From: a bacterium
GTDB taxonomy: Bacteria > Zhuqueibacterota > Zhuqueibacteria > Zhuqueibacterales > Zhuqueibacteraceae
Assembly (NCBI GenBank): GCA_044869275.1
Contig: JBIOXB010000054.1
Span: 1-22,569 of the forward strand
Direction of reading: 5' to 3'
DNA length: 22,569 nt
Both the position numbers and the translations under genes were made by a program. Positions 1 to 18,358 of the stretch are shown here, one piece after another; position 1 is the stretch's first letter; each line of letters opens with the position of its first letter. The notes beneath the pieces are model-generated. The model was not told the origin of the DNA and searched no databases. It worked only from the letters and a program-made list of their open reading frames with translations.

Positions 1-142
1 CGCCTTTGATGGACTTCACACCTTCGTTGGTGGCAAGATTGACCGTCGCCTCAGGCTGGCCCTTGGGCGCGTCGGCACTGGTCTGCGTCAATCCATGGGC
101 TGCCAACAGCGCGACAGATAATAGAGAATTACGAATCTTCAT
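1..142 (-). CDS. 5' part of an exported protein running off the window edge; possibly SMP-30/gluconolactonase family
   Basis: Not in the ORF track. Manual translation from ATG at 142 gives MKIRNSLLSVALLAAHGLTQTSADAPKGQPEATVNLATNEGVKSIKG, open to the edge. AAGGAG at 154-159; signal-peptide-like N-terminus; 27 nt downstream of the GlcG-cupin stop. The family guess rests only on recalled similarity of the 'PEATVNLATNEGVKSIKG' segment. Confidence 0.6.
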   Translation of the reverse strand, partial: MKIRNSLLSVALLAAHGLTQTSADAPKGQPEATVNLATNEGVKSIKG

Positions 143-169: not shown

Positions 170-1033
170 TCAGTTGATCGACTTTACCACGTAATAATTG
201 AACGGTGCATTGACTTCTTTGAACCAATGCGGCACGCCATGAGGCACGATAATCACATCGCCCTGCACCAGTGCGCGCGCTTCACCGCCCTCGATTGCGG
301 CGCCGCGAATCTCGCCCGGCGAAATGCTCTGGCCGTCCGTCACTTTGCCGCCGGTGACGAACGTTGCCGTACCTTCGAGCACATAAATGATGTCGGTCTC
401 ATCTTCGTGGACTTCGGCTCTGCCCGGACCGTCGCGATGACTGGCGTGAACCTTGTATTCGCCGTTTTCCAGCAGCGGTTGGCCTTTGATGAAAGCGGCG
501 GCCACGATTTTGCTGTCGAAAAAAGTCACGGCGGAAGTTGCCGTGCCATTGGCAATCGCGCTCAACGCATTCGCGCTGGCAATGGCAAGTTCTTCATCCT
601 GTTGCGCGCTGGCTGCGCCGCTCACACCGACGGCGCCGACAATCTGCCCATCGATTGTGATCGGCACACCTCCCTGCAATGGCGTGAAATCATCCAGCGC
701 CACCATGGGTGTGCGGCCTTCACGAATGATCTTTTCAAACACACTGGTCGGGCGCTTAAAAATCGCGGCGGTGCGCGCTTTGCCGATGGAAATCAAACCG
801 CCGGCAGCAAAGGTTCCGTCCAAGCGCTCGACCGCCATCAGATTGCCGCTATCATCAACAACCGCGATCACCGCGCCCGGAGCGTTCAATTCCTTTGCTT
901 TGGTAATGCCGGCAGTAATGGCTTTCTTCGCGCCAGCCAGTGTTAAAGTTGTTTTTGTCGTCGTCGATTGGGCATGAAGAACGTTCATGGTGACGCACGA
1001 CAGAATTATGAAGAAAATCTTAACGTTTTTCAT
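170..1033 (-). CDS. Exported GlcG/HbpS-family heme-binding domain fused to a C-terminal cupin domain
   Basis: GlcG/HbpS motifs (IAVVDDSGNL, GKARTAA, GGVPITIDGQIVGAVGVSGA..QQDEELA) and cupin motifs (AEVHEDETDIIYVLEG, GDVIIVPHGVPHWF). Start moved from 1108 to ATG 1033, which follows AAGGAGAG and gives the signal peptide MKNVKIFFIILSCVTMNVLHA|QS. Confidence 0.85.
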   Translation of the reverse strand: MKNVKIFFIILSCVTMNVLHAQSTTTKTTLTLAGAKKAITAGITKAKELNAPGAVIAVVDDSGNLMAVERLDGTFAAGGLISIGKARTAAIFKRPTSVFEKIIREGRTPMVALDDFTPLQGGVPITIDGQIVGAVGVSGAASAQQDEELAIASANALSAIANGTATSAVTFFDSKIVAAAFIKGQPLLENGEYKVHASHRDGPGRAEVHEDETDIIYVLEGTATFVTGGKVTDGQSISPGEIRGAAIEGGEARALVQGDVIIVPHGVPHWFKEVNAPFNYYVVKSIN

Positions 1034-1130
1034 GATTGTTGCTCTCCTTGCCGGGGGTTCTGAAAACTTCAAATCGCCAGACTTGTGCTCGAGAAGGGGC
1101 TCAGACATTGGACCCCTCCAACCTCAAAAT

Positions 1131-1223: not shown

Positions 1224-1634
1224 TTATTGCATGGTCAAAGAAACAGCCTTATCGAACGAGGCTTCACCAAGCAAAGCTTCGGCAAATGCACACCAAACTT
1301 GCACCTTGGCCACATCCTTGATGTAAGCCGGCAGCGTGATTTTGCGATTCACTTTGTCGCCTTTGATTGGAAAGCGAGCAAGCAAATAGACATTGCCCTT
1401 GGAGTCAACGACCTGCCAATGCGGATCAGGTGTGTCAGGAACAGTGAAGTCATCGGAAACCGTCAGAATGTTTTTGTCGTTTTCGACGGAATGTGTCACC
1501 GTCCCGGTGTTGGCCTTGGGGCCCGCGAATTTGCCGCTGGTGTGCGACGCCATCTTGTCTCCGGCAAAGGCGGCCGCAAACACGAGCGCGATCGCCAGAG
1601 TCAGCATCTTGCTGATTGCTGCAGGGGATTTCAT
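1224..1634 (-). CDS. Small exported DM13-like domain protein
   Basis: Start moved to ATG 1634 (AGGAGAA RBS upstream). Signal peptide ...LTLAIALVFAAAFA|GD. Beta-rich body with SGKF, DF.VPDTPD and the DM13-type C-terminal V.VWCAFAEALLGEASF with a single Cys. Confidence 0.65.
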   Translation of the reverse strand: MKSPAAISKMLTLAIALVFAAAFAGDKMASHTSGKFAGPKANTGTVTHSVENDKNILTVSDDFTVPDTPDPHWQVVDSKGNVYLLARFPIKGDKVNRKITLPAYIKDVAKVQVWCAFAEALLGEASFDKAVSLTMQ

Positions 1635-1681: not shown

Positions 1682-2470
1682 TCATGATTCTTGTTTGCGA
1701 TGCCAGCAGAAGATGCAACGCTTGTCGTTTTGGTGATGCAGCTTGGCGCACATGATCCGTTCATGCCCTTGCCGCATTAGATAAACTTGCGAGGCGAGCA
1801 GCATGCCCAGGGGCGGCGCGATGAAATAAATCCACAGACTCTGCCAGATTTGGCCGGGAAAGGCCGAGCCGAAGCTGCGCGCAGGATTCATGCTCATGCC
1901 GGAAAGCGGCGCTTCGAAGGTGATATAAACCGCAACCAGCACGCCGGCGAAAACTCCGGTAAAGTTGGCGAGGCGATTGGTATTCGAGACCTGCAGAATC
2001 ATGGTCATCAAAATGAAAGTGATCGTCAGCTCAGCGAGGAACGCCAATTGCGGACCACGCGCGCCGGGAAGCGTGGCGACGTAATTGACGGAAGGATCAG
2101 CAATGATTTCGCCGAGGAATGCGAGTGCAATCAACACACCGGCGACTCCACCCAAAAATTGCGCGATGACATAAAAGAAAGCATCCCACCTCGAAACTTT
2201 GCCGAGCCGATAAAATGTCAACGTCACCGCCGGATTGAAATGCGCGCCGGACTGCTTGCCCCAGGGTGAGTAGATAATGCCGATCGCCGTGAGGCCCATG
2301 GCCAGGCCCATCAGCATTCTGCGCACGAAGGGATCAGGAATCGCCTGCCGAATCGGCGAACCGCTGTATTCCAGCAAGGCGCCGAAGCCGCATGCGGATA
2401 TCATGAAGAGGGCGAGCTCGGCGGCTTCCATCAAATATTCCGGCCAGTGAGTTTTGAGTGTTGCGAGCAT
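1682..2470 (-). CDS. MIP family channel (aquaporin-like) with a C-terminal Cys/His motif
   Basis: Two NPA boxes (SGAHFNPAVT, SGMSMNPARS), six hydrophobic segments and the tail CAKLHHQNDKRCIFC. Likely start is ATG 2470 (GAGAG upstream) rather than 2500. Confidence 0.92.
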   Translation of the reverse strand: MLATLKTHWPEYLMEAAELALFMISACGFGALLEYSGSPIRQAIPDPFVRRMLMGLAMGLTAIGIIYSPWGKQSGAHFNPAVTLTFYRLGKVSRWDAFFYVIAQFLGGVAGVLIALAFLGEIIADPSVNYVATLPGARGPQLAFLAELTITFILMTMILQVSNTNRLANFTGVFAGVLVAVYITFEAPLSGMSMNPARSFGSAFPGQIWQSLWIYFIAPPLGMLLASQVYLMRQGHERIMCAKLHHQNDKRCIFCWHRKQES

Positions 2471-2512: not shown

Positions 2513-2541
2513 TTGGTCGAGCGAGTCGCACGATCCTTACA
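2513..2541 (-). promoter_or_regulatory. Putative ECF sigma promoter TGTAAGG-N15-CGACCAA for the aquaporin operon
   Basis: Minus-strand read tgtaagg atcgtgcgactcgct cgaccaa, ~43 nt before the aquaporin ATG; same motif and spacing as the other copies. Confidence 0.75.
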
Positions 2542-2559
2542 AATGCGAATTATTATCGT

Positions 2560-2580
2560 CCGGACGCTCGTCGCGTCCGG
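2560..2580. promoter_or_regulatory. Palindrome between the back-to-back promoters (possible operator)
   Basis: ccggacgc-N5-gcgtccgg, a perfect 8-bp inverted repeat centred at 2570, almost midway between the two -35 boxes. Confidence 0.35.
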
Positions 2581-2594
2581 GCCGAAATCTCGCT

Positions 2595-2623
2595 TGTAAG
2601 GATTGTCCCGTTCGGGCGACGAA
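2595..2623 (+). promoter_or_regulatory. Putative ECF sigma promoter TGTAAGG-N15-CGACGAA for ndh
   Basis: tgtaagg attgtcccgttcggg cgacgaa, ~31 nt before ATG 2654. Confidence 0.75.
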
Positions 2624-2653
2624 CCTGCAAATCACGTTGCACGAGAACGCATA

Positions 2654-4045
2654 ATGCCTTACAGAATTCTTATGAATAAAAACAAAAAAACACGGATCGT
2701 CATTCTGGGCGGCGGATTTGGCGGCCTGTACACCGCCCTGCATCTTGAAAAGACGCTGGCGCGCGATCCAAATGTCGAGGTGACGCTCGTCAACAAAGAA
2801 AACTTCTTCTTGTTTACGCCCATGCTGCATGAAGTCGCAGCGAGCGATCTCGATATCACGCACATCGTCAATCCGATACGCAAGATGCTCACGCGTGTAC
2901 GCTTCTTCGATGGGGAGGTGGAGTCGATCGACTTGGCAAGAAAACGCGTCATCGTAGCTCACGGCCTCGAAGCGCAAGGGCATGACCACGTGCTGGAGTA
3001 TGATCATCTCGTGCTCGGCCTGGGCTCGATCACCAATTTCTTCAACCTGCCGGGATTGCAGGAGCGCGCGATCACCATGAAATCGCTCGGCGACGCCATT
3101 CATCTGCGCAATCGTTTGATCGAGAATCTTGAAGAGGCAGATTTCGAATGCGCCGTTGGCATGCGCGATCATCTGCTGACAGTCGTCGTGGCCGGCGGAG
3201 GGTTCGCAGGAGTGGAAACGATCGCGGGCGTCAACGATTTTATGCGTGAAGCCCTCGAGTTTTATCCGCATCTCAAAGAAATGCAAATTCGCACCGTGCT
3301 GGTCCATCCCGGCGCGGTCATCCTGCCCGAGCTAGGGGAACAATTGGGCCGCTACACACAACAAAAGCTTGCGGAACGCAAAGTGGAGATTCGCGTCAAC
3401 ACGCGGGTGAAGGGAATTTCCGAACGAGGCGTGGAACTGAGTGATGGTACAATGATCAAAGCAAGCATATTGGTTTGGACCGCTGGGACTTCGCCGCATC
3501 CACTGTTGGAAAAATTGCCGTGCCAGAAGGAAAAGGGCCGCGTGGTGGTAAATGCGTTCATGGAAGCGCCGGAATGGCCCGGCGTGTGGGCGCTTGGCGA
3601 TTGCGCAGTCGTTCCCGATCCAGAGGGTAAACCTTATCCGCCCACCGCTCAACACGCGATTCGCGCAGGAAAGGTGCTGGCGCAAAATATCATTGCGACC
3701 GTGCGCGGCGGCAAGAAGAAGCCGTTCGTGTTCAAGACGATCGGCCAGTTGGCGGCAATTGGCCGGCGCACCGGCGTCGCTCGCATTTTCGGATTCAACT
3801 TCTCGGGATTCGCGGCGTGGTGGATGTGGCGCACGATTTATCTGAGCAAGCTGCCACGGTGGGAGAAAAAACTTCGCGTGGCACTGGATTGGACGCTGGA
3901 TTTGTTCTTTTCCAAAGATCTCGTTCAGTTTGAAACCCTGCGCGCGCCTGCGGTTTCACACACGCACGAGGAGGTCCCATTCTTCAACAATAATGGCGTG
4001 AGTACTGCCATGAAGATACCACGCGAAGTGTCGCAAAGCACGTGA
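2654..4045 (+). CDS. ndh: Type II NAD(P)H:quinone oxidoreductase (NDH-2)-like flavoprotein
   Basis: Two Rossmann motifs (RIVILGGGFGG, VVVAGGGFAGVE), FLFTPMLHEVA, VWALGDCA, PPTAQHA quinone-site motif and a C-terminal amphipathic region (GFAAWWMWRTIYLSKLP). Start is ATG 2654 or 2672; the track start at 2603 lies inside the promoter motif. Confidence 0.88.
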   Translation: MPYRILMNKNKKTRIVILGGGFGGLYTALHLEKTLARDPNVEVTLVNKENFFLFTPMLHEVAASDLDITHIVNPIRKMLTRVRFFDGEVESIDLARKRVIVAHGLEAQGHDHVLEYDHLVLGLGSITNFFNLPGLQERAITMKSLGDAIHLRNRLIENLEEADFECAVGMRDHLLTVVVAGGGFAGVETIAGVNDFMREALEFYPHLKEMQIRTVLVHPGAVILPELGEQLGRYTQQKLAERKVEIRVNTRVKGISERGVELSDGTMIKASILVWTAGTSPHPLLEKLPCQKEKGRVVVNAFMEAPEWPGVWALGDCAVVPDPEGKPYPPTAQHAIRAGKVLAQNIIATVRGGKKKPFVFKTIGQLAAIGRRTGVARIFGFNFSGFAAWWMWRTIYLSKLPRWEKKLRVALDWTLDLFFSKDLVQFETLRAPAVSHTHEEVPFFNNNGVSTAMKIPREVSQST

Positions 4046-4101
4046 CAGCGATTGCGCCGCGAAATGGCTCAGGAACACCGATGCTGAAGCGGAGCAACAG
4101 T

Positions 4102-4131
4102 TGTAAGGACTTTTATCGCGTTTCCGACAAA
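4102..4131 (+). promoter_or_regulatory. Putative ECF sigma promoter TGTAAGG-N16-CGACAAA for the GMC gene
   Basis: tgtaagg acttttatcgcgtttc cgacaaa, ~49 nt before ATG 4180; spacer is 1 nt longer than in the other copies. Confidence 0.7.
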
Positions 4132-4179
4132 TGTGTGACTTGAATTCCGCAGCTCAAGAGTGATGGACAGGAGAAAATC

Positions 4180-5727
4180 ATGACTAGTGCAAATCATTTC
4201 GACGTGATCATCATTGGCAGCGGCGCGGGCGGCGGCACGCTGGCGTATCAGCTCGCGCCTTCCGGCAAAAAGATTTTGATTTTAGAGCGCGGTAATTATG
4301 TGCCGCGCGAAAAGGACAATTGGAGCACGCGCGCCGTCAACGTGCAAGCCAAATACAATACCAAAGAGGCCTGGCTTGACAAAGACGGCAAGCCGCTGCA
4401 TCCGCACACCAATTACTACGTCGGCGGCAACACGAAATTTTACGGCGCTGCGCTTTTCCGTTTGCGCCAGGAGGATTTTGGCGAGCTGAAGCATCATGGC
4501 GGCGTCTCGCCAGCGTGGCCGGTTTCGTATGATGAGCTGGAGCCATATTATACCAAGGCCGAGCATCTCTATCATGTGCATGGTGAGCGCGGCGCTGACC
4601 CCACGGAACCGTGGGCAAGCGCGCCTTATCTTTATCCCAAGGTGAGCCACGAGCCGCGCATACAACAGCTGCACGACGATCTCACCCGGCTCGGACACCA
4701 ACCGTTCCACGTGCCGCTCGGCATCATGCTCAACGAGCAGGATCGCTTGCACAGCCGCTGCATTCGTTGCGACACCTGCGACGGGCACCCCTGTTTGGTG
4801 TACGCCAAAGCCGATGCGCAAGTCGTGTGCGTCGATCCGGCGCTCAAGCATCCCAATGTTTCGATGCTCACCGAAGCCTACGTCTCGCGCCTGGAAACCA
4901 GTGCCTCCGGCCGCGAAGTGACGCAAGTACATGTCGAGCGCAACGGCGTACAAGAAACTTATTCGGCGAATGTGGTGGTGGTTTCGTGCGGCGCGATCAA
5001 CTCCGCGGCGCTGCTGCTGCGCTCTGCCAATGACAAACATCCGCGCGGCTTGGCCAATGGCTCCGACGTGGTCGGCCGCCACTATATGGGACATATCAAC
5101 TCCATCGTGCTCGCGATCTCGCAGCATCCCAATCCCTCGGTCTTTCAAAAGACCTTGGCGCTGAATGACTTTTATTTCAAATCAAAGGAATGGGATTTTC
5201 CGATGGGACATATCTCGTTTGTCGGAAAATTGGATGGTGTCACCCTCTCCGCCGGCGCGCCGCCTTTCGTGCCGGGCTTGACGCTCGACATTATGGCGAA
5301 ACACTCACTTGATTTTTGGCTCACTTCGGAAGACTTGCCTGATCCCAACAATCGTGTCGCGCTTGATCGCAAGGGCAACATCCTGCTGTCCTACACGCCC
5401 AACAATGAAGAAGGCCACAAGCGCCTGCAAGCCAAGCTCAAGAACATGCTGCGGCAGATCGAAGGCATGGAGCATATCATTCCGCTGCAGCGCTTTCTGG
5501 GGCAGCGCATCCCGTTGGCGGGCGTTGCGCATCAAAACGGCACGATTCGCTTTGGCAAAAATCCCAACACTTCGGCACTCGATGCCAATTGCCGGGCGCA
5601 TGAAGTGGATAATCTCTACGTCGTCGATGCCAGCTTCTTCCCCTCCAGCGGCGCGGTGAATCCGGCGCTGACCATCATCGCCAATGCGCTGCGCGTGGGG
5701 GATCATCTGCTGGCACGGCTGAAATAA
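4180..5727 (+). CDS. GMC-family FAD-dependent oxidoreductase
   Basis: DVIIIGSGAGGG FAD motif, VGGNTKFYGA, Cys cluster CIRCDTCDGHPC, C-terminal AHQNGT and DNLYVVDASFFPSSGAVNPALT (His/Asn catalytic pair). RBS AGGAG; no signal peptide. Confidence 0.92.
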   Translation: MTSANHFDVIIIGSGAGGGTLAYQLAPSGKKILILERGNYVPREKDNWSTRAVNVQAKYNTKEAWLDKDGKPLHPHTNYYVGGNTKFYGAALFRLRQEDFGELKHHGGVSPAWPVSYDELEPYYTKAEHLYHVHGERGADPTEPWASAPYLYPKVSHEPRIQQLHDDLTRLGHQPFHVPLGIMLNEQDRLHSRCIRCDTCDGHPCLVYAKADAQVVCVDPALKHPNVSMLTEAYVSRLETSASGREVTQVHVERNGVQETYSANVVVVSCGAINSAALLLRSANDKHPRGLANGSDVVGRHYMGHINSIVLAISQHPNPSVFQKTLALNDFYFKSKEWDFPMGHISFVGKLDGVTLSAGAPPFVPGLTLDIMAKHSLDFWLTSEDLPDPNNRVALDRKGNILLSYTPNNEEGHKRLQAKLKNMLRQIEGMEHIIPLQRFLGQRIPLAGVAHQNGTIRFGKNPNTSALDANCRAHEVDNLYVVDASFFPSSGAVNPALTIIANALRVGDHLLARLK

Positions 5728-5730
5728 GGA

Positions 5731-5822
5731 GGGAGTGGGAGATAGGGAGACAGGGAGACAAGGAGAGAGGGAGATATCGCCCCGTCACCCATTCTCCCCG
5801 TCTCCCTCTCCCTCTCACTCTC
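5731..5822. repeat. Inverted octamer repeat array (GGGAGAYA x5, then TCTCCCCG-like x4)
   Basis: gggagata gggagaca gggagaca aggagaga gggagata (5737-5776), then tcgccccg tcacccat tctccccg tctccctc (5777-5808), directly after the GMC stop; can fold into a long hairpin. Confidence 0.8.
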
Positions 5823-5875
5823 GCAGTTCAATACTTCATCGCTCGTGTTTGATTTTAAAATCTTCCAAATAAGAA

Positions 5876-7480
5876 ATGACCGCCGAACAAACAACCTACT
5901 GTCCACTATGCAAAGCTCCTGCTTCCCGCGCGCTACTCGCGCAAGGCGGTTGGATCTCGCCCGAAGCCGAGAGGCAAATGCGTCAGGCGCATCCCAGGTG
6001 GCGCCGCGCCGACGGTGCGTGCCCGGCTTGCGTGCAGCAGTATTTGCTGCAAACCTTGCTGGACAGAGGCGAAGCCGCCTTGCATGAAAGCATTCAAGCT
6101 GTATGGCCACTCGATGCTGAGGCCGCGCTTGGAGCGTTGCCGACACCGCTGCGACTGCATGCGGACCCGCGTTTTACCGGCAGAGGCATTACGCTCGCCC
6201 TGGTTGATAGCGCGTTCTATCCGCATCCGGATCTGGTGCAGCCCGTGAACCGCATTCGTGCGTGGGTTGATGCGAGCGAGCCGGCGATGCCGGCATTATA
6301 CTTTAGATCGCACGAAGCGCCGCGCTGGCCGAACTGGAATGCCGCTGCTTCCGGGCAATGGCACGGCACCATGACCAGCGTGGCCGCGGCCGGTAATGGC
6401 TGGCTGAGCCACGGGCTTTATCGCGGCCTCGCGAGCGATGCTGATCTCGTGCTCATGCAAACGATGGATCGCAACGGCCGCATTTCGAATGACAGCATCG
6501 TGCGCGCACTGCGTTGGCTACGACAGAATCACAAGGCGCTCGACCTCAAAGTCGTAAACATGTCGCTCGGCGCCGACGCGACCGGCGCGTTGCAAGAAAA
6601 TCCGATAGATGCCGAAGTCGAAGCCCTCGGCGGCGAAGGAGTAACCGTGGTTGTTGCCGCCGGCAATAACGGCGAACGCCGGTTGCTGCCGCCGGCAACC
6701 GCGCCCTCTGCACTCACCATTGGCGGACTAGATGATAAGAGCACATTCAATGATGAAGAGATCGAGCTGTGGCACAGCAATTACGGTGCATCGCTCGGGG
6801 GTGCGTTCAAGCCGGAGCTTGTCGCGCCGAGCATTTGGGTGGTCGCGCCGGTATTGCCGGAAACAGAGCTCGCCCAGGAGGCGCAAGAGCTTTTTGCGCG
6901 TCGCGCCGCGGGTGATGAGAGTTGTGAGGGCCGCATCGCAGAGTGTAAGCTCGTCACGCCGTTTTATCAACACGTCGATGGCACCAGTTTCGCCGCGCCA
7001 TTGACCGCGAGCGTCGCGGCGTGCATGCTCGAAGCCAACCCCAAGCTCTCGCCATTTCTGATTCGCGAAGCGCTGATCATGTCGGCCGAGCGGATTCAGA
7101 ACGTGCCGCGTGAGCGCCAAGGCGCCGGGGCGTTGTATGCCGGCCGTGCGCTCACGCTCGCGTTGCGCGAAAAGCACGACAAGCTCAATGGCACTGTGCT
7201 CTCGCCAGAGTTGACAGATTCGATGATGAGTTTCGTGTTGCACGATCATGACGCGAGAAAAGTTCAAGTCTTCGGCAGTTGGAATGATTGGCGCGCGGGT
7301 GTTCTCGCTCATCGAGTGGAAAAGGGGGTATGGCGCGTGAGTTATCCCTTGCCGGCAAAGGGTCGTTATCAATATAAATTTCTCGTCGACGATGAACGCT
7401 GGCGCGATGATTCTGCCAATCCTCACAAAACGCCGGATGGGTTGGGAGGATTGAATAGCGTGTTGGTAGTGATAGATTAA
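5876..7480 (+). CDS. S8 (subtilisin/AprX-like) serine peptidase with an N-terminal CxxC...CxxC motif and a C-terminal CBM48/AMPK-beta-like glycogen-binding domain
   Basis: Catalytic triad motifs ITLALVDSAFYPHPDL (Asp), WHGTMTS (His), DGTSFAAP (Ser) and oxyanion AAGNNG. C9/C12/C49/C52 at the N-terminus. C-terminal VQVFGSWNDW...GVWRV...GRYQYKFLVDDERWRDD.ANP...DGLGGLNSVL. No signal peptide. Confidence 0.9.
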   Translation: MTAEQTTYCPLCKAPASRALLAQGGWISPEAERQMRQAHPRWRRADGACPACVQQYLLQTLLDRGEAALHESIQAVWPLDAEAALGALPTPLRLHADPRFTGRGITLALVDSAFYPHPDLVQPVNRIRAWVDASEPAMPALYFRSHEAPRWPNWNAAASGQWHGTMTSVAAAGNGWLSHGLYRGLASDADLVLMQTMDRNGRISNDSIVRALRWLRQNHKALDLKVVNMSLGADATGALQENPIDAEVEALGGEGVTVVVAAGNNGERRLLPPATAPSALTIGGLDDKSTFNDEEIELWHSNYGASLGGAFKPELVAPSIWVVAPVLPETELAQEAQELFARRAAGDESCEGRIAECKLVTPFYQHVDGTSFAAPLTASVAACMLEANPKLSPFLIREALIMSAERIQNVPRERQGAGALYAGRALTLALREKHDKLNGTVLSPELTDSMMSFVLHDHDARKVQVFGSWNDWRAGVLAHRVEKGVWRVSYPLPAKGRYQYKFLVDDERWRDDSANPHKTPDGLGGLNSVLVVID

Positions 7481-7504
7481 TTAGAAGCTCATGGTTTTGT
7501 GCCC

Positions 7505-7582
7505 CTACTCCTACTCATCCTCTCACTCGTTTTTGAAAAATATTGAACACCGAGTAAGAGTAAAAGTATGGGGACGAGTAAG
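7505..7582. repeat. Inverted hexamer repeat array (CTACTC-like / GAGTAR-like)
   Basis: ctactc ctactc atcctc tcactc ... cgagta agagta aaagta tgggga cgagta in the peptidase-VOC spacer. Confidence 0.65.
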
Positions 7583-7612
7583 TGCTGGAGGCATAAAGCA
7601 AAAGGAGTTCTC

Positions 7613-8704
7613 ATGCGGAAAATGTTAAACAATCGTACAAAAGTTTTCCCTTCGATTTGGCTCCAATGTTTAGCTTTTCTTTCAATCTCTTTTCGATCCT
7701 ATGCTCAGGAATCAATCTCTGTCGTCGACGCCATTGGCATCACGGTTTCGGATATGGATCGCGCACTTGATTTTTACACGAAGGTTCTCACTTTCGAGAA
7801 AGTTTCCGAGATCGAAGTCGCCGGCGAGGCATACGAACATTTGCAGGGCGTTTTCGGTCTGCGCATGCGCGTCGCACGTTTGAAACTCGGAGAAGAGTTT
7901 ATCGAGCTGATGGACTATCTCGCCCCCGAAGGCCGGCCGGTTCCGGTTGATATGCGCAGCAATGATCGCTGGTTTCAGCACATCGCCATCGTGGTGAGTG
8001 ATATGGACCGAGCCTACGCGCATTTGCGCCAGCACAAAGTGCAACACGCCTCCAGCGGCCCGCAACGCATTCCAGATTGGAACAAAGTCGCGGCCGGTAT
8101 TCGCGCGTTCTACTTCCGCGATCCGGATGGCCATCATTTGGAGATCATTTACTTCCCCGCGGGCAAAGGCGATCCCAAATGGCAGAGCCAGGGGCAGATG
8201 GCAGATGGCAAGGAGCAAGGAGCAGAGGGCATAGCGCAGAGGGCGGAGGGCAAGTTGTTTTTGGGCATTGATCACACGGCCATAGTGGTCGCGAACACGG
8301 AAGAGAGCTTGAAATTTTATCGCGATTTGTTGGGATTGGAAGTGGCGGGTGAAAGCGAGAATTACGGCACGGAGCAGGAACATCTCAACAATGTCTTTGG
8401 CGCACGCTTGCGCATCAGCGGCCTGCGCGCCGCGCAAGGACCGGGCATCGAGTTTCTCGAATACTTAACACCGCGTGATGGTCGTCCTACGCCGGATGAT
8501 ATTCGTGCAAACGACCTGATGCACTGGCAAACCACGCTCGTCATATCGAGCGCGGATGCTGTGCTGCAACGCCTGCGTCATAGTGGCGCGAGATTCATCT
8601 CGCCTGCGACAACGGTGATGATTCCTGAAGCTGCACTCGGTTTTAGCAAGGCCTTCCTCGTGCGCGATCGAGATGGCCATGCGATGCGGGTAGCGGAGAA
8701 ATAA
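7613..8704 (+). CDS. Double-domain VOC (glyoxalase/bleomycin-resistance-like) protein, probably exported
   Basis: Two VOC repeats (IGITVSDMDRALDFYTKVL...IELMDY...FQHIAIVVSDMD...FYFRDPDGHHLEI; GIDHTAIVV...SLKFYRDLLG...IEFLEY...LVRDRDGHA). Start moved to ATG 7613 after AAGGAG; possible signal peptide ending SYA|QE. Confidence 0.88.
   Translation: MRKMLNNRTKVFPSIWLQCLAFLSISFRSYAQESISVVDAIGITVSDMDRALDFYTKVLTFEKVSEIEVAGEAYEHLQGVFGLRMRVARLKLGEEFIELMDYLAPEGRPVPVDMRSNDRWFQHIAIVVSDMDRAYAHLRQHKVQHASSGPQRIPDWNKVAAGIRAFYFRDPDGHHLEIIYFPAGKGDPKWQSQGQMADGKEQGAEGIAQRAEGKLFLGIDHTAIVVANTEESLKFYRDLLGLEVAGESENYGTEQEHLNNVFGARLRISGLRAAQGPGIEFLEYLTPRDGRPTPDDIRANDLMHWQTTLVISSADAVLQRLRHSGARFISPATTVMIPEAALGFSKAFLVRDRDGHAMRVAEK
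8191..8253 (+). repeat. In-frame array of nine heptamers inside the VOC interdomain linker
   Basis: ggggcag atggcag atggcaa ggagcaa ggagcag agggcat agcgcag agggcgg agggcaa = 63 nt; same family as 18210-18356. Confidence 0.8.
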
Positions 8705-8752
8705 TTACACAAGCTCCATGCAATGAGATTTACTTCATGATCCAGATGTTGA

Positions 8753-8781
8753 GGTTAGGAATCCTTCCGATCTCCGATAAA
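8753..8781 (+). promoter_or_regulatory. Degenerate copy of the ECF-type promoter, GGTTAGG-N15-CGATAAA, upstream of the glucosidase
   Basis: Same 15-nt spacing and position (~32 nt before ATG 8813); 5/7 match in the -35 box and one mismatch in the -10 box. Confidence 0.45.
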
Positions 8782-8812
8782 GTTTTAGTGAATCCATAAC
8801 GGCGGAGTGTTT

Positions 8813-11446
8813 ATGAACGCGGAGAAAAAACGCCTCGAGGAGGCGCGCCTGCAAAAGGCGGCGTGGAAGAAATGGGGGCCGTATGTGACCGAGCGGCAAT
8901 GGGGCACGGTGCGCGAGGATTACAGCCCCTATGGCAATGCGTGGGAATACGTCTCCCACGACGCCAGCCGCAGCAAAGCGTTTCGCTGGGGTGAAGAAGG
9001 CATAGCGGGAATTTCTGACGAGCGTCAGTTGTTGTGCTTCAGCTTGGCGCTGTGGAACGGTCAAGATGCCATTTTGAAAGAGCGCCTATTCGGCCTGACC
9101 GGTAATGAGGGCAATCACGGGGAAGACGTGAAGGAGTATTACTATTACCTCGACAGCACGCCGACGCATTCGTACATGAAAATGCTGTACAAATATCCGC
9201 AGGCGGAATTTCCGTACAGCCGGCTGGCCGAAGAAAACCGCCGGCGCGGCAAAGGCGCACCGGAATTTGAGCTGATTGACACGGGGATTTTCGATGAAGA
9301 TCGCTATTTCGATGTGTTCGTCGAATATGCCAAAGCGGGCACGGATGATCTATTGATTCGCCTCACGGCGCACAATCGCGGGCCGGAAGCGGCAACCGCA
9401 CATGTGCTGCCGACGGTTTGGTTTCGCAATACCTGGTCATGGGGCTTGAATGGGCATAAACCCAGCATGAGTATTGACACGCGGGGCGGCGTTGAAATCA
9501 ATCAATCTGATCTTGGCAAATTTTGGCTGAAGTGCGAAGGCGTCCCGAAAATCTTGTTCTGTGAAAACGAGACGAACAGCAAGCGTTTATATAATGTCAG
9601 TGACCCGCGAGGGTATGCCAAAGATGGAATCAACGATTATCTCGTTCACCATGATGCGGCTGCGGTGAACCCCATGCAATTGGGCACGAAAGCCGCGGCG
9701 CATTATCAGCTTGAAATTCCGCCGGGAAAATCGTCCAGCATTCGTTTGCGCTTGACCAATTCAAATGCAGCCAGGCCTTTTGCTGACTTCGATGATATCT
9801 TCGCCCTGCGCCAGCAGGAGGCCGATGAGTTTTACGCAGAGATTCAAGCGCTCATCAAAGACGAGGACGCCAGGAACGTGCAACGCCAGGCCTTCGCGGG
9901 CATGCTGTGGTCGAAGCAGTTTTTCTATTTCGACATTCCGCAATGGCTGAACGGCGATCCGGGCCAGCCAGCGCCGCCGGTGCAGCGCAAGCGCGGCCGC
10001 AACAGCGAATGGACACACCTCAACAATGCCGACATTATTTCGATGCCGGATAAATGGGAATATCCCTGGTATGCCGCCTGGGATCTCGCGTTCCATTGCC
10101 TGCCGCTGGCGATGATCGATCCTGATTTTGCAAAAGAGCAGCTGATGCTGCTCACGCGCGAGTGGTACATGCATCCCAACGGCCAATTGCCGGCGTATGA
10201 ATGGGCGTTTGGCGACGTGAATCCGCCCGTGCATGCCTGGGCAGCGTGGCGGGTTTTTCAAATCGATCGCAAGAGGAACAACGCCAAGGGCGATCTTGTT
10301 TTTCTCGAGCGTGTCTTTCAGAAACTTCTGTTGAATTTTACCTGGTGGGTGAATCGCAAAGACGCCCACGGTATGAACATCTTTCAAGGCGGATTTCTCG
10401 GGCTGGACAACATCGGCGTGTTCGACCGCAGCGCGCCATTGCCCACCGGCGGCCATATCGCGCAAGCGGACGGCACGAGCTGGATGGCGATGTATTCGCT
10501 CAACATGATGCGCATCGCATTGGAGCTGGCGCTGCACAATCACGTCTACGAAGATATGGCCACGAAATTCCTCGAGCATTTTCTCTACATTGCCGGCGCC
10601 ACCGCCAACATCGGCGGCGAGGGCATCAACTTGTGGGATCAACAGGATGAATTCTTTTACGATGTCTTGCATCTGCCGAACGATGCGAAGATCACGCTGA
10701 AAGTGCGCTCGATGGTGGGATTGATTCCGCTCTTTGCAGTGGAAACACTCGAGCCGGAATTACTTGACAAAGTGCCAGAATTCAAGCATCGTCTCGAATG
10801 GTTTCTCAACCATCGCCCGGATTTAGCGAACTTGGTTTCGCGCTGGTCTGAGCACGGCATGGGCGAGCGCCGGCTGCTCTCGCTGCTGCGCGGCCATCGC
10901 ATGAAACGCTTGCTCAAGCGCATGCTGGATGAGACGGAATTTCTCTCGGACTATGGCGTGCGAGCACTCTCGCGAGTGCATGATGACAAGCCTTACGTTT
11001 TTCATGTGAACGGCAACGCCTTCACAGTGAAGTATCAGCCGGCGGAATCGGATTCCGGTTTGTTCGGCGGCAATTCCAACTGGCGCGGCCCAATCTGGAT
11101 GCCGGTGAATTATCTCATCATCGAGTCGCTGCAGAAGTTTCATCACTATTATGGCGGCGATTTTAAAATCGAGTGCCCGACCGGGTCCGGCAAGTTCCTG
11201 ACGATTAACGAGGTGGCGAATGAGCTTGCGCGCCGGCTCTCGCGCATATTCCTGCGGGATGAAAATGGCAAACGCCCGGTGTTCAACTACAATGAAAAAA
11301 TTCAAAACGATCCGCATTTTCGTGATTATGTTCTGTTCCACGAGTATTTTCACGGCGACAGCGGTCGCGGCGTAGGCGCCTCGCATCAAACCGGCTGGAC
11401 CGGGCTGGTCGCGAAATTATTGCAGCCGCGCGCGGTTGAGACATAA
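8813..11446 (+). CDS. MGH1-like / GH63-related alpha-glucosidase ((alpha/alpha)6 glycoside hydrolase)
   Basis: [95 protein letters not shown]. Start ATG 8813 after GGAG. Confidence 0.9.
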
Positions 11447-11461
11447 ATTAACCGCTGGGAT

Positions 11462-11490
11462 TGTAAGGTTGCCGCGTAAAACACGACAAC
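11462..11490 (+). promoter_or_regulatory. Putative ECF sigma promoter TGTAAGG-N15-CGACAAC for glucose dehydrogenase
   Basis: tgtaagg ttgccgcgtaaaaca cgacaac, ~58 nt before ATG 11548. Confidence 0.75.
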
Positions 11491-11547
11491 TCTACGGTAG
11501 TGAAGAAATCGACCTTCCAACAGATTGTTGTATCTTACGGAGACAAT

Positions 11548-12651
11548 ATGAAAGCGATTGCGGTTCTTCCAGGAAAGCCTAATTCTACGCATCTGCGTGA
11601 GGTGCCGAAACCGAGCATTTCCGAGGCACCGGGTGGCCGGGGCGTGCTGGTGAAGGTTTTGCGCGTCGGTGTCGATGGCACCGACAAAGAAATCAATGCT
11701 GCAGAGTATGGGGCTGCGCCTCCAGGTTACGATTATCTCATCACCGGCCACGAGTCCTTTGGCGTTGTCGAAGAAATCGGGCCAAAGGTAACGGAATTGA
11801 AGGTGGGTGATTACGTGGTGGCCACGGTTCGGCGTCCCGGCAGCTCGATCTATGATCAGATCGGCGCGTATGACATGACCACCGATGACTTGTATTACGA
11901 GCGCGGCATCAATTTGCGCCATGGCTTTCTCGCCGAATACTACGTCGATGATCCCGAGTATATCGTGAAATTCCCCCGCGGCTTGAAAGAAGTTGGCGTG
12001 TTACTTGAGCCGATGACGGTCGTTGAGAAAGGCATTGCGCAAGCCTACGAAATTCAGCGCCGCCTCAGAGTATGGCGTCCGCGCCGCGCCGCGGTAATGG
12101 GCGCCGGCACGATCGGCCTGCTGGCAACGCTGGTGCTGCGTTTGCGCGGCCTGGAAGTGACGACCTTTGGCCGCACGCCGAAGCCTTATCTTAATTCCGA
12201 CTTGATTGAGACGCTGGGCGCACGCTACGAATCAACCAGCGATTTGCCGATACTTGCTGGCGCTCAGAAATACGGACCGTTCGATATTGTTTTTGAAGCG
12301 ACGGGCGCTTCCTCCATCGTCTTCGAGAGCATGCAGGCGCTCGGCAAGAATGGCGTGCTCGTGCTCTCCAGCGTGACCGGCGGCAACAAAATGATCGAAG
12401 TGGCGGCGGACAAGATCAACCTCGAGTTCGTGCTTGGCAACAAAGTGACGGTCGGCACGGTAAACGCCAATCGCGAATATTTTGAGATGGGCGTAAAAGA
12501 TATGGCTCACGCCGAAGCCGAATATCGCGGCTGGTTGAAACGCCTGCTGACGCATCCGGTCAAAGGCCTTGAGAATTACCAAGAGCTGCTCGACAAGCTG
12601 ACGACCGCCAAGGGCGCGATCAAAGTGTTTTGCGAAGTCGCGGAGCTATAA
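11548..12651 (+). CDS. gdh: Zinc-dependent (MDR family) glucose 1-dehydrogenase, Haloferax-type
   Basis: [69 protein letters not shown]. Start ATG 11548 after GGAG. Confidence 0.88.
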
Positions 12652-12689
12652 ATCAGAAGTTGTTGGCAAAATCTCCAGCGGATCAAAAC

Positions 12690-12735
12690 GACCCAGCTGA
12701 TATAAACGACCAGTTGGGTCTGTCTTTCTATTTCT
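12690..12735 (+). terminator. Probable intrinsic terminator after gdh
   Basis: 10-bp stem gacccagctg (12690-12699) / cagttgggtc (12711-12720) with one G-U pair, followed by T-rich tgtctttctatttct. Confidence 0.55.
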
Positions 12736-12800
12736 GGTTAATATGCCGGCAATAGCGGCGGGCGGAGTTTTGTGGGGCTTCAAGTTTTTATTATGGATCG

Positions 12801-12829
12801 TGTAAGGTGTTACGCCGCTCACCGACTAA
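12801..12829 (+). promoter_or_regulatory. Putative ECF sigma promoter TGTAAGG-N15-CGACTAA for the anti-sigma/debranching enzyme operon
   Basis: tgtaagg tgttacgccgctcac cgactaa, downstream of the gdh terminator and ~79 nt before ATG 12908. Confidence 0.75.
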
Positions 12830-12907: not shown

Positions 12908-13243
12908 ATGGCAAAAACGAGATTGGACAGGCTTATGAAAATAAACGAAATGTTGGTGACATGGTTGGCGCGGCGATTATCCAATTGCCAAGAAGTCACG
13001 CGCATGGCCTCGGATGCGATGGAGCGAAAACTTTCGCTGCCTCGATGGATTGATATGAAATTGCATTTTTTAATTTGCGCTGCGTGTTACAGGTATTTCA
13101 AGCAACTCCAATTCATGAGAAAAATTGCCCGCCAACACGGGGCGCAAGCCGAAGACCCGGTGTCTTCACCCACCTCTTCTCTTTCTCCCGAAGCTCGCGA
13201 ACGGATGAAACGCAGACTGGACATTCCTCCTCAAAGAGAATAA
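12908..13243 (+). CDS. Small soluble zf-HC2 / ZAS zinc-binding anti-sigma-factor-like protein
   Basis: C27-x25-H53-x3-C57-x2-C60 (NCQEVTRMASDAMERKLS...KLHFLICAACYRYFKQL) and C-terminal LSPEARERMKRRL; no TM segment. Start may be ATG 12935. Confidence 0.85.
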   Translation: MAKTRLDRLMKINEMLVTWLARRLSNCQEVTRMASDAMERKLSLPRWIDMKLHFLICAACYRYFKQLQFMRKIARQHGAQAEDPVSSPTSSLSPEARERMKRRLDIPPQRE

Positions 13244-13253
13244 GGATCTCGGC

Positions 13254-15287
13254 ATGTCTATTTTTTTTGATAAATCCATTACACAAAATTTTGATGAAGC
13301 CGTGCGGCGCGAATGGCTCGAAACCAATGGGCTGGGCGGCTGGGCCAGCTCCACGATCGCTGGCGCACATACGCGGCGTTATCATGGGTTGTTGGTCGCG
13401 GCCACGCATCCGCCGGTGGGGCGCATGGTTCTCCTTTCCAAGCTGGATGAAACGATTGTTCTCAACGGCCGGCGCTTCGAGCTGGGCTGCAATCGTTATC
13501 CTGGCGTTGTGCATCCACAAGGCTACCAATATCTGCAATCCTTCACCAAAGATCTGTTTCCGGTGTTTGAATTTGAAGCGGGTGGCGTTCGGCTACGCAA
13601 AACAATTGTCGCGGTCGATGGTGAAAATACCACGTTGGTTTTGTATGAAGTCCTGAGCGCACCGGCGGCTTTCTCGCTTGAGCTGCGGCCGTTTATCGCT
13701 TATCGCGATTATCACAGTATGACCCATGCCAACGGCGCCATCAGGTGTGGGGCGAATTTCAACCTCGGCGTTTTGCGTGTGCAGCCTTACGACGGTTTGC
13801 CCGAATTATTCCTTGCGATTCCCGGCGCGGCCTTCGAAGCACAGCCCGATTGGTATCGCAATTTCGAATACAGTATCGAGCAATATCGCGGGCTGGATCA
13901 TCGCGAAGATCTATTTACACACGGACTGTTTAAGCTCAGCTTGAAATCCGGTGATACACTGGGCGCCGTTATTTCAACGAATAATCCAGAAAATCGTGAA
14001 GCATTTAAATTGTTCGCCGGCGAAAAGCGTCGTCGCGAAAAACTTCTCGATGGTCCCAGCAACAAAGACGAGTTTTCCAAAATTTTGACGCTGGCCGCGG
14101 ATCAATTCATCGTCAAGCGCGGCGAAGATTTGCGCACCATCATCGCCGGGTATCATTGGTTCTCGGATTGGGGTCGCGATACCATGATCGCGCTGCCTGG
14201 CATTTGCCTCGTCACCGGTCGTTTCGATGACGCTAAGAAGATTCTGCGCGCCTTTGCCCAGAGCACCAGCCAGGGGATGTTGCCAAATCGTTTTCCGGAC
14301 GCCGGTGAGCAGCCGGAGTACAACACGGTTGACGCAACGCTGTGGTTTTTTGTGGCGATTTACAAATATCTGCAAGCCAGCGGTGACGAGGCACTCGTGC
14401 GTGAGGAACTGATGCCAATTCTGCGCGACCTCCTTGCGTGGCACGACCGTGGCACGCGCTATCGCATTCACGTTGATGCCGACGGCTTGCTCTATGCCGG
14501 CGTGCCAGGTGTGCAGCTCACTTGGATGGATGCCAAAATCGGCGATTGGGTGGTGACCCCACGACAAGGCAAAGCCGTTGAGATCAACGCGCTGTGGTAC
14601 AATGCGCTGATGATTTTCGCCGAATTATCCCAGCGGTTTGGCAATGCCGCTGAAGTGAGGCAATTCTCTCAACGCGCCGAACAGGTCAAAACGAGATTCG
14701 GTGAAGTTTTCTTGAACAAAGCTGCGGGTTATCTTTACGATTACATTGATGGCGAGCACCAGGATGTCGCGCTTCGTCCGAATCAAATCTTTGCGCTGAG
14801 CTTGCCTTTCCCATTGTTGGAGGGCAAATATGCAGAACAAGTTTTGAAGATTGTCGAAGAAAAATTGCACACACCGGTTGGTTTGCGCAGTCTCGCTGTC
14901 AATGAATCTGGCTATCGCCCACATTATGGCGGTGATTCATGGTCGCGTGACAGTGCTTATCATCAAGGCACGGTTTGGAGTTGGCTGCTCGGGCCGCTGA
15001 TCACGGCGATTGTCCGAGTTGAAGGCGAGGCCGGGAAGCAGCGTGCAAAGCAGCTGCTTGAGCAAATCAAACCGCACCTGAGCGACGCGGGCATTGGCAC
15101 AATCTCCGAAATCTTTGATGCCGAACCGCCACATGCGCCGCGCGGCTGCATGGCGCAAGCGTGGGGAGTTGCCGAAGTCTTGCGGGCGTATATTGAAGAC
15201 GTGATGGCGCAGACGCCAACGGTGAAGCCGGTGCGTGCTCCAAAGAAGGCAACAACAGCGAAATCCCCAATAATGGAGATGGCATAG
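13254..15287 (+). CDS. Amylo-alpha-1,6-glucosidase (archaeal-type glycogen debranching enzyme, GDE_N + GDE_C)
   Basis: EWLETNGLGG, TRRYHGLL, IIAGYHWFSDWGRDTMIALPG, YNTVDATLW, LTWMDAK, PRQGKAVEINALWYNAL, RPNQIFA, YHQGTVWSWLLG, EIFD..PPH.PRGC.AQAW. RBS AAGGA overlaps the upstream stop codon. Confidence 0.93.
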   Translation: MSIFFDKSITQNFDEAVRREWLETNGLGGWASSTIAGAHTRRYHGLLVAATHPPVGRMVLLSKLDETIVLNGRRFELGCNRYPGVVHPQGYQYLQSFTKDLFPVFEFEAGGVRLRKTIVAVDGENTTLVLYEVLSAPAAFSLELRPFIAYRDYHSMTHANGAIRCGANFNLGVLRVQPYDGLPELFLAIPGAAFEAQPDWYRNFEYSIEQYRGLDHREDLFTHGLFKLSLKSGDTLGAVISTNNPENREAFKLFAGEKRRREKLLDGPSNKDEFSKILTLAADQFIVKRGEDLRTIIAGYHWFSDWGRDTMIALPGICLVTGRFDDAKKILRAFAQSTSQGMLPNRFPDAGEQPEYNTVDATLWFFVAIYKYLQASGDEALVREELMPILRDLLAWHDRGTRYRIHVDADGLLYAGVPGVQLTWMDAKIGDWVVTPRQGKAVEINALWYNALMIFAELSQRFGNAAEVRQFSQRAEQVKTRFGEVFLNKAAGYLYDYIDGEHQDVALRPNQIFALSLPFPLLEGKYAEQVLKIVEEKLHTPVGLRSLAVNESGYRPHYGGDSWSRDSAYHQGTVWSWLLGPLITAIVRVEGEAGKQRAKQLLEQIKPHLSDAGIGTISEIFDAEPPHAPRGCMAQAWGVAEVLRAYIEDVMAQTPTVKPVRAPKKATTAKSPIMEMA

Positions 15288-15444
15288 TCATGATCAACAA
15301 TTCTCCAGGTGAGCCGCACTGTGGATGATGGCCATGGCTTTGAGAACGCGCAGAGACCTTCTTAATGGACTTCCTCGGGTTTTCAGACGAGCTGAAAACC
15401 GAAACCAGAGGGCAGCAGCAATGGCACAATTATCCTGCAAAAAA

Positions 15445-15562
15445 GCAGAAGGCAGAAAGATGCAGGACAAAAAAATGTTTGCCGTTTGCTCTATCCCATC
15501 ACTAACCAGACTCAGAGCATGACGTCCATTGCCATCTTTCTGTACTTCATTTTTCTGTCATT
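15445..15562. repeat. Inverted pair of ~14-mer doublets (RCAGAAARATG-like)
   Basis: ggcagaaagatg caggacaaaaaaatg (~15451-15477) faces gccatctttctgtacttcatttttctgtcatt (15531-15562; reverse complement aatgacagaaaaatgaagtacagaaagatggc). Confidence 0.55.
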
Positions 15563-15570
15563 GCTTTTGC

Positions 15571-16110
15571 TCAATTCGACGCAACATTTCCAAAATAACT
15601 CTTGCTGAAGGGGTGAAGATCGTAAGCACCGCCGGTCCGCGATGCGGCAGGGCAAATCGGAAGGTGGTGAAGTGGTTGAAAGGGTTCGAATGCCGCTTTT
15701 TTTTCAATCGTGTCGCTCTGATCGAATTCGACGAAGTGGTTTTCAATGCCGGTTTTGCCAATTATTTCACGCGGCTTGGCTAAATCGGCGCCCGTCTCCG
15801 GATGTGATTTATGAACTCAACCAGGAATGAAGAAAATAATATAGGGTGAAAAATCTGAACGTGGTTGGAAGGTTATCGTGTCTTTGCGGTTCACAAATTC
15901 TTCATGATAAGCTCTCTGCAGCGGTTGGTTCGCTTGATTATCCAAAATGTGCCTGGCAAGATAAAGCGCGGCAAAATCCACCGAAAAGGCGTTGGAAAGA
16001 TGTTTGAGATGGTCAGGCACTGGCAGAGACAAGCTGTCCGTGTGCCGATGGATTGTGTGTGGTGAGCGCTCTTCCCTACAAATGCCCGAGGCGCACCCCG
16101 TCGAGCACAA
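15571..16110 (-). pseudogene. Probable decayed gene (possibly alpha/beta-hydrolase-like) with an in-frame TGA at 15817-15819
   Basis: ORF 15817..16110 continues in frame past TGA for 81 more sense codons to TGA 15571: ...SNAFSVDFAALYLARHILDNQANQPLQRAYHEEF...PYIIFFIPG*VHKSHPETGADLAKPREIIGKTGIENHFVEFDQSDTIEKKAAF... Composition is protein-like; no good start or RBS. Confidence 0.5.
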
Positions 16111-16203
16111 TCCCGAGTCAGGTTTTCATAGTGGTGCATGATTGGACTTGCAGGACGAAAAAAGGCAATTGCAATTTTTCTCTAGCACGAGCGCTGCACC
16201 ACC

Positions 16204-18051: not shown

Positions 18052-18073
18052 AGTCAGCTCCTCTCTAAATTGC

Positions 18074-18211
18074 CTAGCAGGATGCTGAAAAACACTTTTG
18101 AAGTCATGCCCGCGAAAGCGGGCATCCAGAAAATGCAAGGAAATCATGGATTCCCGCTTTCGCGGGAATGACAATCTTGAGTGATTAGTGAATTTCTCAG
18201 CAACCTGCTAG
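18074..18211. mobile_element. 138-bp MITE-like element: CTAG-flanked terminal inverted repeats with an internal REP-like doublet
   Basis: ctagcaggatgctgaaaaa (18074-18092) vs tttctcagcaacctgctag (18193-18211), 17/19 complementary, with CTAG at both ends; no transposase. Confidence 0.7.
18103..18172. repeat. Inverted REP-like palindrome pair (GTCATKCCCGCGAAAGCGGGMATCCA)
   Basis: gtcatgcccgcgaaagcgggcatcca (18103-18128) and tggattcccgctttcgcgggaatgac (18147-18172); each unit is itself a hairpin with a GAAA/TTTC loop. Confidence 0.85.
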
Positions 18212-18356
18212 AGCATAGAGCCGAGGGCATAGAGCGATGGGTAAAAGGTGTGGGGCGAAGAGCGCACCCATCGCCCTCCGCTCTACGCCCTACACTCTTT
18301 GCCCTAAGCTCTATGCTCTCAGCTCCATGCCCTCAGCTCTACGCCCTCCGCCCTCA
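18210..18356. repeat. Inverted heptamer array, 21 units in continuous 7-nt register
   Basis: Eight purine-rich units (agagcat agagccg agggcat agagcga ...; 18210-18265), then thirteen complementary units (acccatc gccctcc gctctac gccctac ... gccctca; 18266-18356). Confidence 0.85.
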
Positions 18357-18358
18357 GC

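Follow-up and report, generated by a model that had tools for sequence, protein, structure and literature searches.

The closest described relatives of the regulatory system treated here are the extracytoplasmic function (ECF) sigma factor sigmaE (Ecf) of Neisseria and its anti-sigma factor MseR, which belong to group ECF13 (now ECF293). The promoters of sigmaE follow the consensus GTMAGBWTT-N12-13-CGTCTAAH, and the mapped gonococcal msrAB start is an adenosine six bases downstream of the -10 box (PMC2893595). According to the supplement of PMC7826278, the anti-sigma gene of ECF293 stands at position +1 of the sigma gene, the linker between regions sigma2 and sigma4 is extended, sigma4 holds three cysteines in most subgroups and the promoter motifs differ among subgroups; reports differ on whether the sigma gene is autoregulated (PMC2893595 and the same supplement), and ECF13 is not named in the main text of Rhodius 2013 (PMC3817407). 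The DNA analyzed in this work (hereafter, the window) is the entire 22,569-nt contig C54 (JBIOXB010000054.1) of a 6.67-Mb, 94%-complete genome, G000, from the uncultured lineage KSB1, and it carries several copies of a two-part element, TGTAAGG-N15/16-CGAC-N-AA, ahead of genes that include putative glucose-oxidizing and alpha-glucan-degrading enzymes.

The repeated two-part motif is real, and we consider it likely that it is the promoter of an ECF sigma factor of the TIGR02943 (Neisseria Ecf) type, which would be held inactive, until stress, by a small zinc-binding anti-sigma (ZAS) factor encoded in the window. An earlier note on this DNA had proposed such an ECF regulon and had pointed to the likeness to Neisseria sigmaE. 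The comparisons below cover the family of the source genome (f1: G000 and 18 relatives), two other families of the phylum (f7 and f8), distant phyla and two samples from one study, X1 (the likely source run of the window) and X2. Two search patterns were used, a strict one (TGTAAGG-N15/16-CGACNA) and a loose one (TGTAAGKN15-16CGWCNA).

The two-part motif in the window, the genome and its relatives

All six stretches that the earlier note had listed lie where it placed them, and five hold up as copies of the motif. The leftward copy at 2513..2541 (-) (-35 TGTAAGGATC, -10 CGACCAA, position weight matrix (PWM) score 28.4, predicted start G2507) would drive the aquaporin unit; it stands back-to-back with the copy at 2595..2623 (+) (-35 TGTAAGGATT, -10 CGACGAA, PWM score 32.7, predicted start A2629), which would drive ndh, and the same arrangement is seen in the relatives G009 and G012. 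The remaining three copies lie at 4102..4131 (+) (spacer 16, predicted start G4137), for the GMC oxidoreductase gene and likely also the S8 and VOC genes behind it, at 11462..11490 (+) (-10 CGACAAC, predicted start G11496), for the glucose dehydrogenase gene (gdh), and at 12801..12829 (+) (-10 CGACTAA, predicted start G12835), for the anti-sigma and debranching enzyme genes. Four of them match the full pattern exactly and the gdh copy has one mismatch; all five fit CGACNA, are intergenic and sense-oriented, and lie 43 (aquaporin), 31 or 49 (ndh), 49 (GMC), 58 (gdh) and 79 or 106 nt (anti-sigma) before an ATG. The S8 and VOC genes and the unit encoding an NtrC-like activator, a response regulator and a histidine kinase have no copy. 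Operon limits were inferred from gene spacing only, because a scan for sigma70 promoters and terminators stayed at chance level (9 vs 9.3 and 25 vs 21.9, respectively).

The sixth stretch, at 8753..8781 (+) before the GH63 gene, has three mismatches and is not significant by itself, since shuffled windows give on average 3.8 matches with up to three mismatches; it is possibly a weak or decayed promoter. Exact copies precede GH63 genes on contig C130 of the source genome and in G002, G008 and G016, and the in-cluster GH63 genes of G009 and G012 have no exact copy before them. This degenerate site is the only one compatible with chance, which for the five main copies has a negligible probability: exact TGTAAGG-N14-17-CGACNAA was found in none of 100 shuffled windows (mean 0.00), and matches outside the family lie inside open reading frames (ORFs) in 5/5 loci inspected. 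Across the genome, the strict pattern occurs 7 times where 0.55 copies are expected from half-site frequencies, and the half-site spacers over 5-39 nt are 15 (six times), 16, 30 and 39 nt (once each). Besides the five copies in the window there is one on C130, which stands before another GH63 gene with msrB and msrA behind it (probably co-transcribed), so that the suggestion of msrAB as a member of the regulon was borne out, and one on C213, which precedes a molybdopterin oxidoreductase gene (Oxidored_molyb). The latter region (C213:39029-43660) continues with transketolase and PGI-domain genes, possibly co-transcribed with the oxidoreductase gene.

The strict pattern is also present in 11/18 family relatives, ten of which carry 3-7 copies, and these stand before the same genes also in genomes with a split cluster (ndh, GMC, GH63, gdh, debranching enzyme, HbpS unit, oxidoreductase and anti-sigma). 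For a closer view we assembled a set of 42 distinct sites in 32 loci of relatives, chosen by pattern match with one mismatch allowed and with the gene context checked for part of them. Conservation extends beyond the search pattern, with WTT after TGTAAGG and with A after CGACNA in 40/42 sites. A purine stands 6 nt downstream of the -10 box in 42/42 of these sites and in 8/8 sites of the source genome, compared with 14/20 sites of distant loci and 17/31 loose chance matches. The fixed spacer, the conserved flanks and this purine agree with the proposal of an ECF promoter. Conserved upstream motifs are often operators, and the element might accordingly be read as the binding site of a transcription factor; we regard this as most improbable, given that it is asymmetric, always sense-oriented and spaced like an ECF promoter with its +6 purine, agrees with a sigma consensus from the literature and co-occurs with a sigma/anti-sigma pair.

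In loci of Acidobacteriota and Verrucomicrobiota (L008, L009, L011 and L012), a motif copy is followed by a second ZAS gene that neighbours S8, MIP, GH63 or debranching enzyme genes; the same module recurs across phyla.

Anti-sigma factor and candidate sigma factor

The ORF at 12908..13243 (+), whose start is either 12908 or 12935, passes the antisigmaE model NF052368 (55.7 bits vs a cut-off of 50), and its four zinc ligands (C-X25-H-X3-C-X2-C) are invariant in 20/20 aligned proteins. By these sequence features we class it as a small ZAS anti-sigma factor, as had been proposed; it also appears soluble when its sequence is judged by eye. The ZAS tree is poorly resolved. In distant phyla, a ZAS homologue directly follows an ECF sigma gene in 7/9 loci, the four sigma factors tested pass TIGR02943, and in 3 of the 7 distant loci with adjacent sigma and ZAS genes the motif is located shortly before the sigma gene.

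TIGR02943 genes occur in 8/18 family relatives and in 13/167 genomes of the phylum, and in the G000 assembly none scores over the cut-off (best, 79.8 bits). When X1 and X2 were compared with the sigma gene of G009, we found an unbinned contig of 1,889 nt in X1, and the same sequence in X2, with a depth of 10.4 in X1 (window pieces, 10.2-14.4) and of 3.0 in X2 (window pieces, 3.2-5.2). The sigma protein P0021, which comes from a contig of the same length and fits the loose ends of this one, passes TIGR02943 (179.9 vs a cut-off of 162.2; gonococcal Ecf, 237), which agrees with the proposal that the sigma factor is encoded away from the window. P0021 nests among the f1 sigma factors (support 97/90), groups with gonococcal Ecf in one clade (FastTree 0.958) and is 40% identical to it, while the binned ECF factors of G000 reach at most 30% over comparable lengths (37% over one 67-aa stretch). 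It has three sigma4 cysteines (155, 175 and 181), only two being invariant in 64 aligned proteins, and the sigma2-sigma4 linker of its G009 orthologue is 11 residues longer than that of E. coli sigmaE. Matches in the PDB are solely distant ECF factors (E 5e-12 or weaker), and those in the ESM Atlas are generic ECF clusters. Based on the model score, the identities and the tree, we assign P0021 and its relatives to the TIGR02943 (Neisseria Ecf) type.

Two further lines of evidence are in favor of the proposed system. At least three strict copies are found in 10/12 f1 genomes with ZAS vs 1/7 without. Across the phylum, at least five loose copies are found in 8/13 TIGR02943-positive genomes vs 7/154 negative ones (mean, 6.0 loose copies in sigma-positive genomes and 1.1 in the others), counts in which kin are not independent and which rest on a noisy pattern whose reversed control is often above it, used here solely for this contrast. 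Additionally, the predicted complex of P0021 and the window ZAS reaches an ipSAE of 0.79 (best of three controls, 0.00), with contacts that agree by at least 91% between runs and a partner pLDDT of at least 81; the ipSAE mark is reached by 116/157 solved pairs and by 2/215 mismatched pairs.

The position of the sigma gene outside the assembly leaves room for the reading that the regulon is a relic, in which genuine ECF293-type sites lost their sigma factor, P0021 comes from a co-occurring relative, and the sites are silent and decaying. We hold this to be unlikely. It would agree with the lack in G000 of a TIGR02943 gene or remnant, also in the ~900-nt gap (15288-16203) at which the sigma gene of G009 stands, with the degenerate GH63 site, with G002, which retains sites without either protein, and with the sister species G001. 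In the latter (L007 and L087) no TIGR02943 sigma gene was found, the ZAS gene has a premature TAA, the debranching enzyme gene is in pieces and the promoter copies are degenerate, apparently through decay of the system or through assembly errors. Against a relic stand the intact window genes and ZAS ligands, the depth of the sigma contig, which follows that of the window in two samples, and the demonstrable absence of nearby DNA from the G000 bin: a contig of X1 runs 8.6 kb past the left end of the window, and a gene found there is absent from G000.

Another ECF factor of the assembly might also be thought to read the motif, given that 34 sigma region-2 matches were found in G000, such as the C117 sigma factor, which has a small zinc-finger partner, or the SigH-like one of C167; in G009, G012 and G015 a SigH-like sigma gene has the motif immediately before it, which can be read as autoregulation. 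The distribution of these factors, however, does not track the motif, and both were rejected as its reader: the C117 orthologue is present in 7/19 family genomes and was not found in the motif-rich G004, G008, G009 and G012-G015, whereas SigH-like genes are present in 16/19, including G003, G006 and G011, which have no strict copy. Furthermore, none of the G000 sigma genes among the matches listed has the full motif upstream, and we consider this possibility very improbable.

Returning to a TIGR02943-type sigma factor as the reader, several observations weigh against it. The assignment of P0021, from outside the G000 assembly, is based on its place in the tree and on the depth in two samples that belong to one study, and a sigma/ZAS couple is a textbook pair, so that its predicted complex may pass through likeness to solved structures. 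The distribution has exceptions as well: G002, which is 100% complete, has three strict copies, two of them before regulon orthologues, and neither sigma nor ZAS was found in it; G012 and G014 carry motif and ZAS, and no sigma gene was found in them; G010 encodes both proteins but lacks a strict copy; and G128 has the sigma gene and no loose copy. A PWM trained on relatives only gives 8 matches in G000 at a score of at least 17 (six of them intergenic and before regulon genes) vs 9 in reversed-genome controls, and the sites on C213 and at 8753 escaped it; at a score of at least 21 there are 5 matches vs none in the controls. The -10 box is CGACNAA here and CGTCTAA in Neisseria, with 4-6/7 matches in the eight G000 sites. 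Finally, sigmaE expression in meningococci did not change with oxidants (PMC2893595), and the trigger is therefore uncertain.

Split gene layout and candidate sigma54 control

In the family of the source genome, the sigma and anti-sigma genes are apart (0/8 sigma genes are followed by a ZAS gene), while in f7 and f8 they are adjacent (5/5). The earlier note had suggested a search for the motif upstream of an ECF sigma gene, as a sign of autoregulation, and in this family the idea was not borne out: the motif is found within 800 nt upstream of 0/7 f1 sigma genes with upstream DNA. In G009 and G015 the motif lies ~8 kb upstream of the sigma gene, before another sigma gene. All 12 f1 ZAS genes, on the other hand, have an exact or one-mismatch copy, either directly upstream or before an oxidoreductase gene that heads the operon (in G004, G007, G010 and G013, a molybdopterin oxidoreductase of the C213 type). 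In f7 and f8, 4/5 loci carry a copy inside the sigma gene, TGTAAGGAA..CGTCYAA, in its 3' end (L097:1596(-), L098:1912, L099:1906 and L100:1924), where it is placed to drive the anti-sigma gene; the f1 sigma genes lack such a copy. That ZAS genes carry the motif and f1 sigma genes do not points to the anti-sigma as the constant feedback target.

What would then set the level of the sigma factor? Sigma54-dependent promoters carry GG at -24 and GC at -12, ten bases apart. All seven f1 sigma units have a sigma54-like site that scores at least 10/12 against the consensus, with a pattern chosen after seeing the sites; 8.1% of the 4,208 upstream regions of G000 also reach this score, and the seven units span three genera. 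The gene for sigma54, rpoN, is present in G000. Two findings speak against sigma54, namely that only 1/7 sites has C at -12 and that the GT variant is not enriched in G000 (15 vs 14 in reversed controls). Dependence of sigma synthesis on sigma54 is the weakest step of the proposal, one to which we give somewhat less than an even chance.

Some observations were made alongside. In the upstream regions of G000, YGGYAY-N5-T-N-G-x-W is enriched in the sense orientation with A (33 sense, 16 antisense and 5 reversed) or C (18, 9 and 7, respectively) at -12, and bases other than C may be allowed at this position in the sigma54 promoters of the lineage. On contig C211 (77300-78300 (-)), the gene for a sigma54 activator has behind it a sigma54-like site, a STAS-like gene, whose homologue precedes the ECF sigma gene in G008 and G009, and an 85-aa ORF with sigma2 only. 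In the G009 locus L047 (5018 and 6623-12199), the motif precedes a second SigH-like ECF gene and a DoxX gene; after these, a 1,858-aa fusion of a kinase to a sigma54 activator is encoded, and the STAS-like gene and the sigma gene of the ECF293 type follow it directly.

Predicted regulon and comparison with known systems

Around the promoters, the window encodes a set of proteins whose roles are putative, as they are taken from Pfam families. To the left, on the minus strand, lie the 5' end of a gluconolactonase-like gene (1..142), cut by the contig end, with an N-terminus like that of the PF08450 protein at the same place in G009, a gene for an HbpS-like haem-binding and cupin protein (170..1108, likely start 1033), one for a small, probably secreted protein (1224..1634) with no Pfam match, which has its own motif in G004 and G007, and that of the aquaporin (1682..2470, PF00230). 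The plus-strand genes encode a type II NADH dehydrogenase-like protein (ndh, 2654..4045, PF07992 and PF22366), the GMC oxidoreductase (4180..5727), a subtilase (S8) with a C-terminal glycogen-binding module (5876..7480, PF00082 and PF16561), a VOC/glyoxalase protein (7568..8704), the GH63/MGH1-like glucosidase (8813..11446), a Zn-dependent glucose dehydrogenase (11548..12651, PF16912) and, 10 nt after the anti-sigma gene, the debranching enzyme amylo-alpha-1,6-glucosidase (13254..15287, PF06202 and PF12439). Farther right (16204-22101 (-)), genes for a PAS/GAF histidine kinase, a response regulator and a REC-PAS-sigma54 activator converge on the cluster at the position that the sigma gene occupies in G009. 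Between genes, short elements of low complexity or with repeats were seen at 5730-5830, 15400-15570, 18180-18360 and 22410-22530, the last having similar copies on many other contigs.

In the mechanism that we propose, the promoters (-35 TGTAAGGWTT, 12-13 nt, -10 CGACNAA and a predicted start at the purine 6 nt downstream) would be read by P0021, which the ZAS would bind and, by analogy with MseR and HrsE, let go when its zinc-cysteine site is oxidized. The freed sigma factor would transcribe some 12 window genes, the GH63-msrB-msrA genes and the molybdopterin oxidoreductase gene, thereby coupling the release of glucose from alpha-glucans and glucosides (GH63 and debranching enzyme) and its oxidation (glucose dehydrogenase, GMC and lactonase, with supply of NAD(P)H, and ndh for the handling of NADH) to methionine repair (msrA and msrB). 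It would also restore its own inhibitor, and because the targets include the anti-sigma gene but not the sigma gene, the feedback would be negative only. In its widest form, the proposal is that of a rewired ECF293 switch, in which a sigma54 activator sets the level of the ECF factor, the ECF factor drives its remote anti-sigma gene (giving a pulse and not a latch) and the output links methionine repair to the mobilization and oxidation of alpha-glucan stores; this we put forward as a tentative and rather doubtful extension.

If correct, the model supplies a regulon and a promoter type for the uncultured lineage KSB1, places some dozen little-understood genes under a single stress response and presents an ECF293 circuit whose feedback target would be the anti-sigma and not the sigma gene. 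It would also mean that the sigmaE promoter type of Neisseria and Haemophilus, with its -10 box altered, is found in several additional phyla, and it provides a set of sigma factor, anti-sigma factor and promoters that can be tested in E. coli. The promoter type itself is that of Neisseria sigmaE, known and already published; what is new is the changed -10 box, the split layout of sigma and anti-sigma genes and the targets. Our literature searches, which did not cover subscription journals, returned no report of this regulon or motif in KSB1.

Several known systems share part of these features. ECF16, represented by Bradyrhizobium EcfF/OsrA (PMC3420878), has a similar geometry (tGTAACc-N16-CGAA) and controls methionine sulfoxide reductase, but its -35 box holds GTAAC, where GTAAG is found in 42/42 of our relatives' sites, and the partner here is a small ZAS. 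In Sinorhizobium RpoE2/RsiA1 (reviewed in PMC8103513), the anti-sigma is likewise encoded away from its ECF gene; that sigma factor, however, belongs to a different ECF group, and a second anti-sigma gene stays in the sigma operon. RpoE2/HrsE of Haemophilus influenzae (PMC7907618) comprises an ECF group 13 sigma factor with msrAB control and a peptide ZAS anti-sigma, whose pattern, C/H-X23-26-H-X3-C-X2-C, is also found here; mtsZ, for a molybdenum enzyme, is among the targets described for that system, and here an Oxidored_molyb gene bears the motif. With ECF293 as a group, our system shares the extended sigma2-sigma4 linker, as judged on the G009 orthologue, a membership that applies to P0021 and the sigma factors of the relatives, and not to a gene of the G000 assembly.

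The likeness is greatest to Neisseria sigmaE and MseR, to which the earlier note had pointed. The -35 boxes of the G000 sites match the Neisseria consensus at 6-9 of 9 positions (7-9 in 7/8 sites), the spacer is 12-13 nt in 8/8, and the gonococcal locus has the same promoter geometry ahead of its ecf operon (in passing, the 2.17-Mb Neisseria gonorrhoeae records NZ_CP119142.1 and NZ_CP119140.1 are filed as plasmids and look like chromosomes). Both systems have a small soluble ZAS factor, the +6 purine and msrA and msrB as targets, the msr genes lying here behind a GH63 gene (motif-GH63-msrB-msrA on C130 and in G002; GH63 and then msrB in G008 and G016). They differ in that the anti-sigma gene is not beside the sigma gene here, that the sigma gene lacks the motif, and that the regulon predicted here, with 7-8 promoters, exceeds the known one in size and contains many genes for alpha-glucan use and glucose oxidation.

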